57,446 bases of DNA from a virus (IMGVR_UViG_3300021108_000002:1-57446); one strand, 5' to 3'; positions 14,781 to 25,792 are shown, numbered from the stretch's first letter. Program-made: numbers and translations. Notes: generated from the letters alone by a model not told the origin.

Positions 14781-16973
14781 TTATCTCATATTTTTAAAGG
14801 GATTACGTGGGCTTTTTGAATTAACTCCATTACCTTTAGAGCCACCTATATGTCTAAAGGGGCTCCAATTTAATTTACTAAATTTCTGGGAGTTATCCAA
14901 GTTTTCTTTTGTAACTTCTACACGTTTAGTCAGTCCTCTGTTACTCTGTTGCACCTTTGCAAACGCTATAAGAGCACAAAAAGCTACTAATCTATCTACG
15001 TTTAGACCATCTCTGTATGCTTGCATCTCTTTTAGAAGCATAATATCAGGAATACGTTCAACACCATATATTGTCTTTACAATGTCACCATTTTCTTTAG
15101 TCTCATAGTCTAGCTCTTCTTTTGTAAACTCTATACCATAAGATAGTACATTTCCTTTGAATAATGTACCTACGTTTTTCCAACCATATTCTTGGAATAC
15201 ATTTCTATTGGCACCAATATCTTTTAAAAATAAGATCATATCTTTTGGAACTAAGTACTTCTGCTTTCTTTTTGAAATCATGTACTGAATAAACAAAGCT
15301 ACGTTATTTTCTACAATAGTCCAGGCATTATACCATTCTATAAGAAGCTCAAGTCTTTCATGAGTTTTGTTAAGATCATCAAAACGTCCACACCATGATG
15401 CTACAATCATGTCACGTTCTATCTCGTTCTTTACAGATCCGTTACCATCATCCTTTATAACCTCCACTGGATTCTTATATACATATATAGAACATAGTGA
15501 ATCAGATGTAGTGGTCTTTCCTTCACTAACAGGGTCTACAGAAGCATAGTACATCCCAAATGTAGGATCTTTATGAGGTCTTTCGTAAATACACAATACT
15601 CCTTCTTTATCTTCTGTCTTCTTAGACACAGGAAAGTCCATGATAGGAATCTTTCTGGAAGGTTTGTCTACAATCTTACCCTCAGCATTACGAGATAGTT
15701 CTAAATATTCAGTGGGATATTCTTTATCTTGTATACGTTGCATTTGTTTAGCAACTAAGTGTGGAGGAAACACGCTCACCTTACGTGTTGCAAATGCTTC
15801 TTCTATACAACGAGGTTGCTGAGATACTGTCAACTGATAAGCTGCCGGATCTAAATCCTTTTTCATCTTATCAAACTCTTTTTCTAATGCTTCTAAAGCT
15901 TCTTCCACTTTAGAGTTACCCCATTGATCTATGTATGGAGGCATAGACCATTGTTCAGGAATAAACAAACCTGTTTTTCCTATTGTACCATCTTTATCAA
16001 TGAGATTAGACTCTACAGCATAAAATCCATTTTCTTCTGGATGCATGATGTATTCTTTCATAGGCTCGCACTGGTCTAAATCACCGACAGATCCAGCTGC
16101 AATAAACTGGCCCGTAATCATGTGACCAGACTTCAATGCTGGTTTCATAAACCCGTAAGTATCGTCCATCTTTGGAGCAATACCGGCTTCCTCATGAAAG
16201 AAATAGGTGACAGGTCCACCGACACCGTGTGTCGGGTCTTTCTCAAAGGAGTATAAGTTGATCGTGGATTTCAAACCTCTATAAGTGTCACGACCACCCA
16301 TTCTCACTTTAATCTGTTGCTGCCAAGCTCCCACCTTGTCTGGCTCTGCTGGTCTATACCATGCAGTGTGTTCATTTAAGAAGTTCTTGTATTCACCAAG
16401 AAACTTCCATGAACCTTTCTCATTAATGTAATCCTTTAGACTAGCTCCTATCTTTAATACAGCTCCTTCTTCAAACCAATACTGGTTGATTAGTTTAGCC
16501 ATATGAAAATATGAGGATGCTATCTGACGCTTCTTTAGAATGATAGCATGCTTATAATGTAATTCAGCTAAATGCTCATATAGAGCCATGTGATACTGTG
16601 CATCTCTCACCTTAGCAAAGTCAAACCTCTTTTCTTCTTTATCATAGATAGGAAGAAAGTTTAACCACATGTAATAGTCTCTACTTATAAACCAAGAGGT
16701 GCCAGCATCTTTAATAATTACACCGTTACGACATTTATTCTTTTGATCATTCCAGTATGTAATAAAGTCTTTACTCTTTATTGGTGCTGCACAGTAGTAT
16801 CCTTGTTTTTGAAACTTACGTCCTTCTTCATTAAAAATCTTACTAGTTTCATTAAAATTATACTTACCCGGCTCTTTAAACATAGATAAAAGAAAGTCCC
16901 TAAACTCTTCCATTGTATAGAATGTAGTTACATCCCATACGCCATTCTCGTATGTAGGTATTTCTTTAAACAT
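14781..16973 (-). CDS. terL: Terminase large subunit
   Basis: 730 aa; LKKRQIASSY Walker A variant, FFHEEAG Walker B, YYASVDPV RNase H-like nuclease, C-terminal NVDRL. Confidence 0.9.
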   Translation of the reverse strand: MFKEIPTYENGVWDVTTFYTMEEFRDFLLSMFKEPGKYNFNETSKIFNEEGRKFQKQGYYCAAPIKSKDFITYWNDQKNKCRNGVIIKDAGTSWFISRDYYMWLNFLPIYDKEEKRFDFAKVRDAQYHMALYEHLAELHYKHAIILKKRQIASSYFHMAKLINQYWFEEGAVLKIGASLKDYINEKGSWKFLGEYKNFLNEHTAWYRPAEPDKVGAWQQQIKVRMGGRDTYRGLKSTINLYSFEKDPTHGVGGPVTYFFHEEAGIAPKMDDTYGFMKPALKSGHMITGQFIAAGSVGDLDQCEPMKEYIMHPEENGFYAVESNLIDKDGTIGKTGLFIPEQWSMPPYIDQWGNSKVEEALEALEKEFDKMKKDLDPAAYQLTVSQQPRCIEEAFATRKVSVFPPHLVAKQMQRIQDKEYPTEYLELSRNAEGKIVDKPSRKIPIMDFPVSKKTEDKEGVLCIYERPHKDPTFGMYYASVDPVSEGKTTTSDSLCSIYVYKNPVEVIKDDGNGSVKNEIERDMIVASWCGRFDDLNKTHERLELLIEWYNAWTIVENNVALFIQYMISKRKQKYLVPKDMILFLKDIGANRNVFQEYGWKNVGTLFKGNVLSYGIEFTKEELDYETKENGDIVKTIYGVERIPDIMLLKEMQAYRDGLNVDRLVAFCALIAFAKVQQSNRGLTKRVEVTKENLDNSQKFSKLNWSPFRHIGGSKGNGVNSKSPRNPFKNMR

Positions 16974-17257
16974 TATTTAGTATTAACAACAGTGGTTATA
17001 TTACGAATCTCATTTACATCACCTTTAGACTTATGTAATAAGTGCAAAAGAGTGTTAAAATCTTTACTACGTAATACGCCATCCAGTTCACAATTGTCCC
17101 AATACTTGGTATACAAATCTCTCGGAATAGCATTCCATAGTTTATTGTAAGGATTAAAATGAAAAACCCAATCATGCATAAAACCATCAGTATCTGATAG
17201 AGGGGTAATTGCTGCAAACTCTTTAATTTCATAATCTGTGTAAACGTCTTGTGCCAT
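16973..17257 (-). CDS. Hypothetical protein (likely start 17257, MAQDVY)
   Basis: 94 aa, WVFHFNPY motif; the upstream ATG in the track lies inside an RNA hairpin. Confidence 0.6.
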   Translation of the reverse strand: MAQDVYTDYEIKEFAAITPLSDTDGFMHDWVFHFNPYNKLWNAIPRDLYTKYWDNCELDGVLRSKDFNTLLHLLHKSKGDVNEIRNITTVVNTK

Positions 17258-17279
17258 AGTTTTATAGTTTAATATTTTT

Positions 17280-17384
17280 AGGAAAGCAGAAGATGGGTGC
17301 GTGGACATCTGCTTTTACGACTGGCATTTCTAACCTCTAGGTATCCGCCCTTTCTACAGTTAAAGGATACATTCCAGTCAACCT
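17280..17384 (-). ncRNA. Structured RNA 3' of tRNA-like element
   Basis: Helices GACTGG/CCAGTC, GTATCC/GGATAC and AAAGCAGA/TCTGCTTT. Confidence 0.4.
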
Positions 17385-17390
17385 AATATG

Positions 17391-17560
17391 CTGTAGAGGG
17401 TGGACTCGAACCACCAAGGTGAGATTCAATTGATGACAGTACGCTTGCAAGCTGGTGGTCTACCCCATATCATCAATCTATTTCTTTGTCACCGCCCACG
17501 AGACAGGTGGGTGCGTATGCCAGGGTCATAACTGAGACAACCCAATTTCGCCACTCTACA
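17391..17560 (-). ncRNA. Expanded tRNA-like RNA (GTC/Asp anticodon, large D-loop and variable-arm insertions)
   Basis: Acceptor TGTAGAG/CTCTACA, D-arm GCG..CGC, anticodon arm CCCAC-CTGTCTC-GTGGG, T-arm GGTGG-TTCGAGT-CCACC; 170 nt; no encoded CCA. Confidence 0.7.
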
Positions 17561-17565
17561 ATGTT

Positions 17566-18078
17566 CTATTGATCATAAGCTAGATTCTGTCCTCCTCTAA
17601 CTTGTGATTGTTGTTCTTCTAACAAATCTCTATACACTCCTTTAAAGCTTTGTCTAACAGCATCAAATCTTTCTGCTATTCTAAGAATAGCTGTAGCAGA
17701 TCCATCTCTACCAGATGTCACTTTTTCTGTAGCCATAAACCCAGCCATATTATCTAGTGCAATCTTAATACCCTGGTATGCTCTATAGGTGGGGGTCTCA
17801 TACATTTTCTTACACATCTTTAACCCATTCACTATAAGATCATCTTCTGTAGAAAAATCCCCGTCTACTTCTGATATAATGATTTCTTCTTTGTCCATTT
17901 CCGGTACATCAAAAAAAGGATTTAAATCTGGATTAGGACATGTCATATAGAACAAATATGTAAACACCTTTACAGATTCATCACCATACTCATCCATTAT
18001 ATCTTTTAAAAACTTTAATGTGTAACAATGCTCACTTGGAACCACCTTACCATTTTGTATATCAAATAATCTTATCAT
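17566..18078 (-). CDS. Hypothetical protein (possible terminase small subunit)
   Basis: 170 aa upstream of terL, helical, C-terminal VRGG; function inferred from position only. Confidence 0.4.
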   Translation of the reverse strand: MIRLFDIQNGKVVPSEHCYTLKFLKDIMDEYGDESVKVFTYLFYMTCPNPDLNPFFDVPEMDKEEIIISEVDGDFSTEDDLIVNGLKMCKKMYETPTYRAYQGIKIALDNMAGFMATEKVTSGRDGSATAILRIAERFDAVRQSFKGVYRDLLEEQQSQVRGGQNLAYDQ

Positions 18079-18917
18079 TAATGTTTTTGTTTTAAATTGT
18101 CTCTATTATCTTCTAACCAATGTAGTAAAGATATAACTTCTGCTTTCAAATATGGTAGATCATACTGAATAATATCTTTAACTATAGGATCACCATTTGT
18201 ATCAAGAGCGGTGATGGGATTACCAAACTTATCTTTACCCACTTCTTCAAATAGAATATGATGTATAGTTAGTATTCCTGGCTTTAGTTTTGGATTATGT
18301 TTCAGTATAATATACATATACAAACTTAATTGTAATGCATAGTGGTTTACATTACAATCATCAAGATGACTAACAGGAGAGTTCATCTTAGTTGTAACAC
18401 CCTCCCAGTTAGTGAATCCTTCTGTCTTAATTTCTTTGTTAGTCTTATAGTCTGTAATATGAACTTCTCCACTAATCACCTCAACAAGATCTGACTGACC
18501 ACATAATCCGGCAGATTTTAGGTAAACCATGTGCTCAGGATATACACCATCTGTGAGCTTCTGGTTTGGAGAAACTTTAATACCGTCAGTCTCAATCGGC
18601 CTAAAAATAGGAACAGTGTTACCATGTCTTTCTATTGTTTCTAATGAACATATATCTGATTCTCTGCAATTGTGATACCATGTACCTAATGTTGTAGCAC
18701 GTAATGCTTCATTAGACCATGCAAGTTTTATTTCTTCTGGCGTCATACCATACCATTTAGACTTCTTAGACTTAGATGTTTTTAGAGCAATCTTATCTGC
18801 GTCAAATGGTTGTTTAAAGTTACCAATAAACGATGTTACAGATACCCATTTGATATCTTCTTGTTTATCTATACTTGTATACTTGTGGTCATGTGGTGTG
18901 AATGTTATAATGCTCAT
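18078..18917 (-). CDS. PD-(D/E)XK exonuclease
   Basis: SVTSFI, LGTWYH, GQSDLV, ITDYKT and YALQLSLY motifs. Confidence 0.8.
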   Translation of the reverse strand: MSIITFTPHDHKYTSIDKQEDIKWVSVTSFIGNFKQPFDADKIALKTSKSKKSKWYGMTPEEIKLAWSNEALRATTLGTWYHNCRESDICSLETIERHGNTVPIFRPIETDGIKVSPNQKLTDGVYPEHMVYLKSAGLCGQSDLVEVISGEVHITDYKTNKEIKTEGFTNWEGVTTKMNSPVSHLDDCNVNHYALQLSLYMYIILKHNPKLKPGILTIHHILFEEVGKDKFGNPITALDTNGDPIVKDIIQYDLPYLKAEVISLLHWLEDNRDNLKQKH

Positions 18918-25719: not shown

Positions 25720-25792
25720 AGTCAGGTGGCTGTAATTGGTAACAGCGGTGCAATATTGCATAGAAATGCAGGTTCAAGTCCTGTCTTGACTA
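25720..25792 (+). ncRNA. tRNA-like RNA with collapsed anticodon loop
   Basis: Acceptor AGTCAGG/CTTGACT, D-arm GCTG-TAATTGGTAA-CAGC, T-arm GCAGG-TTCAAGT-CCTGT; anticodon arm GTGCA-ATAT-TGCAT has only a 4-nt loop. Confidence 0.75.

Follow-up and report, generated by a model that had tools for sequence, protein, structure and literature searches.

A tRNA-like RNA with inserted helices in the D-loop and variable arm, shared by crAss-like lake phages and Bacteroidota

Cloverleaf, inserted helices and covariation

The question raised by this locus is what kind of RNA is specified by a gene of 170 nt that has the cloverleaf of a tRNA and the anticodon of aspartate, and that embeds additional helices in both the D-loop and the variable region. 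The gene (17391..17560, minus strand) is located in a viral DNA of 57,446 nt (IMGVR_UViG_3300021108_000002:1-57446), the whole of which is hereinafter referred to as the window. Positions 1-170 of the element run from 17560 to 17391 on the minus strand, i.e., each window coordinate is 17561 minus the element position.

The reading of the minus strand revealed the canonical features of a tRNA, that is, a 7-bp acceptor stem, a D arm with G18 and G19, a 5-bp anticodon stem closing a 7-nt loop, and a T loop of the UUCRANY type. The 5' strand of the acceptor stem, UGUAGAG (17554..17560, minus strand), begins with three bases (U1, G2 and U3) that are invariant in the RNA family described below; the stem joins element positions 1-7 with 163-169, and U8 and G9 follow its 5' strand. 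The D arm (17513..17551, minus strand) has a stem of 3 bp (element positions 10-12 with 46-48) and a Leu-type D-loop into which a hairpin of 7 bp, with CUCAGUU as its loop, is inserted (17523..17543, minus strand). The strands of this hairpin, GGGTTGT and ATGACCC, occupy element positions 18-24 and 32-38, and are followed by GG, as in a normal D-loop. In the anticodon arm (17495..17511, minus strand), a 5-bp stem carries the 7-nt loop CUGUCUC, with the anticodon GUC (Asp) at 17502..17504 on the minus strand, immediately followed by U37 and C38. The variable arm (17416..17494, minus strand) covers 79 nt, corresponding to element positions 67-145, and it precedes a T arm with a 5-bp stem (17399..17415, minus strand; GGUGG/UUCGAGU/CCACC) and the 3' strand of the acceptor stem with the discriminator G73 (17391..17398, minus strand, G73 being at 17391). 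The sequence then continues with CAU, and CCA is not encoded.

A 170-nt tRNA-like RNA with insertions in the D-loop and in the variable arm had been described in an earlier note on this DNA, and the description is confirmed by the cloverleaf and by covariation. All the helices named there (GGTGA/TCACC, ATTGATGA/TCATCAAT and GGGTTGT/ATGACCC) are present, and the absence of CCA, the pyrimidine at position 37 and the GUC anticodon are all read in the sequence.

The minimum free energy of the single sequence is -54.5 kcal/mol (z = -1.19), and 26 out of 200 shuffled sequences fold as well; thermodynamics alone does not show structure above chance, whereas comparative evidence does. In 20 sequences of the window subtype, 98.9% of 881 cells were paired, with compensatory changes in 23 of the 51 pairs; when the partners were slid by 1-3 columns in the same 20 sequences, pairing was only 40-56%, and none of 500 shuffles equalled the observed values on four of the five measures. 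Because the underlying MAFFT alignment misplaced the 5' portion of the 11 rows devoid of a D-loop hairpin, nine rows were used to count the D stem, the D hairpin and acceptor pairs 6-7. Compensatory pairs amounted to 3/7 in the D-loop hairpin (nine sequences), and to 8/10 and 3/5, respectively, in the middle and outer stems of the variable arm. The core cloverleaf, analysed on 38 host and phage sequences, exhibited 98.9% of 912 cells paired and 18/24 compensatory pairs. Every helix covaries, that of the D-loop insert and those nested within the variable arm among them, and since the inserted helices covary, they are parts of a folded RNA rather than the outcome of decay. A covariance model constructed on 38 host and phage sequences, without the window subtype, gave the element a score of 78.2 bits (E 1.7e-20); true members reach 79 bits or more, and cross-matches to ordinary class II tRNAs range from 50 to 63 bits.

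The existence of short-arm relatives (84-96 nt) might suggest that the inserts are introns to be spliced out, or that the gene is a dead pseudogene. This reading is scarcely credible, because covarying inserts are not expected of a pseudogene, those in the D-loop and in the variable region are not at the canonical intron site, no Rfam intron family is matched, and the RNA contigs run through the arm. These contigs come from four RNA runs, all of them in the form of Logan contigs. One lake metatranscriptome yielded short adapter-flanked contigs confined to the element (17419-17546), and another run a 4.4-kb contig spanning everything; the short RNA-library contigs are continuous from the variable arm into the anticodon and D arms. 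As to expression, the contigs represent a weak hint at most, and do not demonstrate transcription, the expression level or the ends of the RNA. The sole contig that skips the arm, from run X21, has 25 other letters replacing the long arm (window 17416-17495); since these letters are those of a short-arm relative, as in locus L005, the joint is unlikely to be the result of splicing. Thus, no clean skip of the arm was observed in the RNA contigs, and the splicing to a normal tRNA that the earlier note had envisaged finds no counterpart there. An intron-bearing tRNA was accordingly rejected on the basis of the position of the inserts, the Rfam result and the lack of a clean skip. The X21 contig also indicates that phage variants with long and with short arms occur together in lakes.

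The element is not recognized by the common annotation tools, as anticipated for tRNA scanners in the earlier note. ARAGORN called no tRNA or tmRNA gene in the window, and a scan of the window with Rfam 15 at the gathering score returned nothing on the element, the sole match being a weak tRNA at 25720-25792. When region 17000-18000 was searched at E<=10, chance matches alone were retrieved, the only one overlapping the element being a snoRNA with 19.1 bits against a threshold of 75 bits; RF00005 did not match the element even at E<=10. The same holds for the relatives: an Rfam scan at the gathering score of eight host and phage loci detected ordinary tRNAs and nothing on the family members, the RNA was not matched in the four host loci tested (one host copy at E<=1), and ARAGORN made no call in the 120 host loci listed. 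The forms called by ARAGORN, as tRNA-Asp(gtc), were the 85-96-nt phage ones, in seven loci. The comparison with ARAGORN and Rfam advised in the earlier note has, therefore, been performed, and no Rfam family was matched. Identity with tmRNA was rejected, given that the ARAGORN tmRNA search was negative in the window, in the phage relatives and in the host loci, and that an anticodon arm is present. A published description of such an RNA was not found in the literature searched, supplementary material lying outside the search, and the family is apparently undescribed; annotation pipelines under-count long-arm tRNA-like genes.

Genomic context in phages and in Bacteroidota

In the window, the RNA gene is preceded by an ORF of 170 aa matching no Pfam or PHROG family (17566..18078, minus strand), whose stop codon lies 5 nt ahead of the 5' end of the RNA, and is followed by a small ORF (16973-17308, minus strand) and by the large terminase gene terL (14781-16973, minus strand); a further neighbour is the portal gene. 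The listed start of the small ORF falls within a hairpin (approximately 17283-17315) whose folding z is only -1.4, and an in-frame ATG at 17257, placed after an A/T-rich stretch, may be its true start. The scan for promoters and terminators around the RNA gene disclosed sites no commoner than in shuffled sequences, with no terminator after the gene. Elsewhere, the window harbors a crAss-like replication module with a DnaB-type helicase, a primase domain, a family-B polymerase and a UDG. The Pfam and PHROG search, covering one ORF of 93 aa and 30 of the 65 ORFs of 110 aa or longer in the window, detected no tRNA-related enzyme, and no nuclease or defence gene adjoining the RNA was seen among the scanned ORFs.

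The nearest named relatives of the TerL protein in INPHARED are Flavobacterium and crAss-like phages, sharing 25% identity, and a blastn search of the INPHARED phages with either window 16900-18100 or a type-B relative gave no match. The DNA of the window was found in lake and freshwater metagenomes. A TerL search of IMG/VR retrieved 546 related stretches, 80 of which were kept. According to a structure-aware scan, 43 of these 80 loci carry the RNA upstream of terL and on the same strand as the terminase, at a median distance of 423 nt (44/81 TerL-anchored loci, if the window's own locus is included). The loci without the RNA comprise 22 with at least 1500 nt of upstream DNA, 14 with too little of it and one without the terL start; the covariance model found no further copy in these 37 loci. 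Since 22 of the 80 loci lack the gene in spite of having at least 1500 nt upstream, the RNA must be dispensable for some relatives.

The phage homologues range from 84 to 171 nt, nearly all of the difference being due to the variable arm (15-101 nt); the D-loop hairpin is restricted to nine unique phage sequences, including that of the window. In relatives, the RNA gene is embedded in arrays with tRNA-Cys, tRNA-Met and tRNA-Leu genes. A pattern of 28 positions, taken from the D-loop and the anticodon loop, occurs in at least 120 stretches of viral contigs, and the same pattern occurs in at least 120 stretches of the genome collection. The absence of homologues, which the earlier note had counted among the results that would speak for a decayed gene, is thus contradicted by their abundance in both phages and hosts.

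All the 80 genome titles listed belong to Bacteroidota, e.g., Pedobacter, Chitinophaga, Saprospiraceae, Cyclobacteriaceae, Cytophagales, Spirosoma and Persicobacter. The host loci listed comprise 150 pattern matches, giving 135 complete tRNA-like frames, 126 of them unique, with lengths of 108-195 nt. Their surroundings are syntenic: a divergent Lrp/AsnC gene is located about 164 nt upstream in 65 of the loci listed, beyond it lie SufB (32 loci) and a SufC-like ATPase (24 loci), and an AMP-binding enzyme is encoded downstream of the RNA in 27. The chromosome of Persicobacter diffluens (L236, 6437-7247) contains a tandem array of five ornate RNA genes (period, 172 nt), and two or three adjacent copies that differ in their variable arms occur in several other hosts. 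The strict pattern was detected in 17 of the 401 genomes of an even sample of the phylum, and the reversed pattern, used as a control, in none of them; the covariance model disclosed three more carriers among 30 genomes negative for the strict pattern, leading to 19 carriers out of 46.

The one host checked for its tRNA complement (G002) possesses 41 canonical tRNAs, including one tRNA-Asp of 76 nt. Because its ordinary set is complete and comprises a normal tRNA-Asp, the ornate RNA has to be considered an extra gene. The best explanation of the distribution is that many Bacteroidota keep this RNA as an additional chromosomal gene and that crAss-like lake phages picked it up. The earlier note had regarded the RNA as a phage oddity sitting in the packaging operon; the family is, in fact, chromosomal and syntenic in many Bacteroidota, and the phage copies of the relatives stand amid ordinary tRNA genes.

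Organization of the variable arm

The variable arm of the window is made up of an outer stem of 5 bp, a 4-nt bulge, a 2-bp step, an asymmetric internal loop, a middle stem of 8-10 bp and an apical three-way region. A single plan is common to the long forms of hosts and phages: the outer stem is followed by a 4-nt bulge and a short step, and then by an asymmetric internal loop, a middle stem and an apex; the strands of the internal loop are purine-rich and conserved, and the middle stem covaries. The apical motif GGGGUAGACCAC (17455..17466, minus strand; family consensus GGGKWGACCAC) is invariant in sequence in the long forms of both hosts and phages.

The apex of the window arm bears a perfect palindrome of 10 nt, GCUUGCAAGC (17443..17452, minus strand), which might be either a short hairpin or a self-complementary kissing loop. 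Directly after the motif, a perfect palindrome of 6-12 nt is present in 33 of 43 unique phage segments, with 14 different palindromes; the corresponding values are 6/48 for host segments and about 0.10-0.11 for shuffled sequences in this position-specific test. The simple count of 6-nt palindromes over the whole arm is uninformative (55/68 observed vs. 0.69 in shuffles). The letters of the palindrome vary and its self-complementarity is kept, also over the four central bases, which would be unpaired in a hairpin. Since self-complementarity is maintained while the letters change, the apex is a candidate kissing loop for self-pairing, and the phage RNAs may dimerise through it, as far as can be judged from the palindromes. 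Alternatively, the palindrome may fold into a hairpin of 3 bp closing a 4-nt loop. In two relatives, this place is taken by an ordinary long hairpin. In phage loci L170, L144 and L052, the invariant motif is followed by its own complement, with which it would form a hairpin of 5-6 bp with the loop ACCAC; the comparison of this hairpin with the palindrome-bearing form suggests that the motif may fold in two ways.

The dimerisation-initiation kissing loops of retroviruses are known to carry a self-complementary sequence at the hairpin apex. The phage apex is alike in showing a self-complementary stretch of 6-12 bases whose letters vary, so that dimerisation is suggested here by the sequence; it differs in that the palindrome can also be folded as the small hairpin mentioned above, and in that the host copies are mostly devoid of it. 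Another system that can be compared is that of the YrlA RNAs, bacterial Y-RNA-like tRNA mimics, some of them phage-encoded, in which the termini of the RNA are part of the Ro-binding stem that takes the place of the anticodon stem. Both have a tRNA-like module joined to another structured module; however, the ends of the element form a normal acceptor stem, the anticodon arm is present, and no Rfam match was obtained. A foreign hairpin borne on a long variable arm, the tRNA being still functional, is also a feature of the aptamer-tagged tRNAs and scaffolds reported in PMC7590224; these are synthetic, whereas the addition described here is natural, up to about 100 nt long, covarying and conserved.

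Identity marks and possible functions

The positions invariant across the family are U1-A72, G2-C71, U3, U8, G9, G34-U35-C36-U37-C38 and G73. In the host sequences, U1, G2, U3, C71, A72 and G73 are fixed in 126/126, and the scan of the phage loci without any constraint on the anticodon yielded 39 unique members, with the loop NNGUCUC in 39/39. Position 33 behaves differently: it is U in 33, G in three, C in two and A in one of the 39 phage sequences, and U33 is absent in 16 of 126 host sequences; the window itself has U33 but U37. It is known that decoding tRNAs have, as a rule, U33 and a purine at position 37. Since U33 is unconserved and U37 is an invariant pyrimidine, the anticodon loop was probably retained for a protein, the simplest candidate being AspRS, rather than for decoding.

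The replacement of U33 and the invariant U37, atypical for decoding tRNAs, argue against a working tRNA-Asp isoacceptor, whose arm would be tolerated by the ribosome and by means of which the phage would sustain the decoding of GAY codons or resist host nucleases cutting tRNAs. A normal tRNA-Asp is already available in the host checked, and such a role would leave unexplained both the sequence-invariant motif of the arm and the invariant UGU/ACA acceptor end. The canonical cloverleaf, the GUC anticodon, C38 and G73 are nonetheless those of an isoacceptor, copies are located within phage tRNA arrays, and the short forms are called tRNA-Asp by ARAGORN. Moreover, long-arm tRNAs tagged with aptamers can be translationally active, as described in PMC7590224, and defence systems are reported in PMC13096335 to cut tRNAs, including the variable loop of tRNA-Tyr. 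On the whole, a working isoacceptor is considered possible, though rather doubtful. The statement of the earlier note that this is not an ordinary decoding tRNA therefore appears sound, in that the RNA is judged an unlikely decoder in the light of positions 33 and 37 across the family. The part in which it was regarded as a mere scaffold is not supported, because the conserved set matches the aspartate identity set, which points to aminoacylation.

According to PMC9976931, aspartate identity rests mainly on G73, G34, U35, C36 and C38. All these five strong determinants are present and invariant in the family, in which G2-C71 is fixed too, and since the invariant positions include exactly these five, the RNA is probably aspartylated. 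The bacterial Asp table of the same source also lists G10: the window has G10, and in the family the 10-25 pair is GC in 16, AU in 15 and UA in 6 of 38 sequences, position 10 being G, A or U. The family further differs from tRNA-Asp in its class II body, in U1-A72 (the tRNA-Asp of the host having G1-C72), in U37 in place of a purine and in the unconserved U33 and G10.

The body resembles that of bacterial class II tRNA-Leu, as shown by the 3-bp D stem, the 11-nt D-loop pattern of the host tRNA-Leu, the A15/U48-type junction, the one or two unpaired bases on the 5' side and the two on the 3' side of the variable stem, and the cross-matches of 50-63 bits with the covariance model. The family departs from tRNA-Leu in having G73 rather than A in all members, an Asp-type anticodon loop, U1-A72 and a variable arm that contains conserved internal motifs and can attain about 120 nt. 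G73 is given as an antideterminant for LeuRS in PMC9976931.

A long arm together with G73 might also be read as a mark of serine charging, in the manner of the allo-tRNAs, with the insertion of serine at aspartate codons. The allo-tRNAs described by Mukai et al. (2017, PMC5389517) share with the family the long arm, G73, an anticodon mismatched with the body and the occurrence in bacteria and phages; GUC is among their predominant anticodons, and a change from A73 to G73 can turn Leu identity into Ser (PMC9976931). The bacterial Ser set in the latter source consists of G73, C72, G2-C71, C11-G24 and a large variable region. G73, G2-C71 and the large arm are found in the family; C72 is not, A72 being invariant, and the 11-24 pair is variable, being UA in 32 of 38 sequences. 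The two unpaired bases 3' of the arm are like those of the host tRNA-Leu and unlike the host tRNA-Ser. The allo-tRNAs differ in their 8/4 or 9/3 geometry and Sec-like D arm, whereas the family has a Leu-like D arm and a 7/5 acceptor/T geometry supported by covariation. The taxa named for them include Firmicutes, Thermodesulfobacteria, Nitrospirae, Proteobacteria and Acidobacteria, and the word 'Bacteroidetes' occurs 0 times in the main text of PMC5389517. A missense at every aspartate codon would, furthermore, be costly for a conserved chromosomal gene, and serine charging is regarded as very improbable.

The U1-A72 pair deserves attention, since amidotransferases accept Asp-tRNA-Asn by means of U1-A72, and G1-C72 and U20a exclude tRNA-Asp (PMC9976931). 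The invariant U1-A72 of the family coincides with this amidotransferase determinant, and position 20a is A in the window and in the consensus, according to the numbering adopted here. On this basis, it can be imagined that the RNA is a non-decoding aminoacyl carrier that would be charged by AspRS and then become a substrate of GatCAB thanks to U1-A72 and to the absence of the tRNA-Asp antideterminants; its Asp or Asn might feed a non-translational process or a conditional Asp-to-Asn recoding, with the arm recruiting a partner and the phage copies pairing with themselves. This is quite improbable. The gatB gene is present in 5/5 and then in 16/16 strict-pattern carriers, and also in 26/30 genomes negative for the strict pattern, kinship being uncontrolled; the 19 carriers out of 46 according to the covariance model are all gatB-positive, and the RNA is absent from the four gatB-negative genomes, again with kinship uncontrolled. 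The co-occurrence of gatB does not discriminate, and a link between the RNA and GatCAB cannot be claimed. Five carriers (G001, G002, G403, G404 and G405) harbor asnS in 5/5 cases, an asparagine synthetase over the cut-off in 4/5 and glnS over the cut-off in 3/5, with one more glnS split over two frames. The latter belongs to G001, where one asnB-like gene also contains stop codons. GatCAB looks redundant for ordinary translation in the carriers, with AsnRS, GlnRS and asparagine synthetase alongside GatB.

The earlier note had proposed a decoy, and it can be imagined that the RNA is an uncharged sponge for a host protein recognizing tRNAs, be it a defence nuclease acting on the anticodon or variable loop or a modification enzyme. 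The conservation of the anticodon-loop bases without U33 would suit it, as would the D-loop hairpin of the window subtype, which presents a second loop with UCUC(A)G, and the phage arm, hypervariable (15-101 nt) and with several architectures, as might be expected in an arms race. However, a syntenic chromosomal host gene would be odd for an anti-defence role, the invariance of G73 and of the first three acceptor pairs suggests that the acceptor end matters, and the window ORFs scanned disclosed neither a nuclease nor a defence gene beside the RNA. A decoy is, therefore, unlikely, and neither this role nor the Y-RNA-like tether put forward in the earlier note is supported by the present results.

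The reading that is tentatively favoured, with a confidence slightly short of even, is that of an accessory RNA borrowed from the host and processed as a tRNA, probably aspartylated, with an anticodon loop serving protein recognition and an arm acting as a handle for binding or dimerisation. Such an RNA would be co-transcribed with the neighbouring late genes and cut out by RNase P and by the 3' tRNA-processing nuclease, like the adjoining tRNAs in the relatives, after which CCA would be added; a C follows G73 directly, as in the tRNA genes of host G002. The host AspRS would then aspartylate it. AspRS approaches the tRNA from the side of the variable loop, and because of this an arm of 80 nt could clash with the enzyme; the variable position 10, the ordinary folding energy and the 22 related phage loci without the gene likewise weigh against the favoured reading. 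The anticodon loop would have been retained for recognition by a protein and not for efficient decoding. The oversized arm, together with the D-loop hairpin in the sub-lineage of the window, might project as a handle for a partner, and two molecules of the phage RNA may pair through their self-complementary apical loops. During infection, the phage copy might supply, or take over, the role of the host RNA. That a tRNA can be decorated and still be active is suggested by the tRNAs tagged with hairpin aptamers, which stay translationally active (PMC7590224).

If the accessory-RNA reading is correct, a phylum and its phages would share a tRNA-derived RNA unseen by standard annotation, in which the body belongs to one tRNA class and the identity marks to another, and whose variable arm bears a natural, structured cargo reaching about 100 nt. 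This would open the question of the role played in Bacteroidota by an extra, probably aspartylated and poorly decoding tRNA, and that of why crAss-like lake phages carry and remodel it, particularly as regards the phage-specific self-complementary loop. It would also bear on the limits of the natural tRNA decoration compatible with tRNA processing, a matter useful to the engineering of tRNA scaffolds.

A second odd tRNA-like gene of 73 nt lies at 25720-25792 on the plus strand of the window, and corresponds to the weak Rfam tRNA match mentioned above (39.1 bits), with no call by ARAGORN. It has acceptor, D and T arms and the discriminator A; since its 'anticodon arm', a 12-nt palindrome, consists of a 5-bp stem and a loop of 4 nt, the gene is without an anticodon. 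Its relatives, found in loci L107 (six copies, 78-148 nt), L119, L128 and L194 (203 nt), share with it the acceptor, D and T arms, and the stretch separating the D arm from the T arm is unrelated in sequence and 30-150 nt long. The first of these loci, L107, corresponds to a tRNA island of a phage and contains no fewer than 16 ordinary tRNAs.
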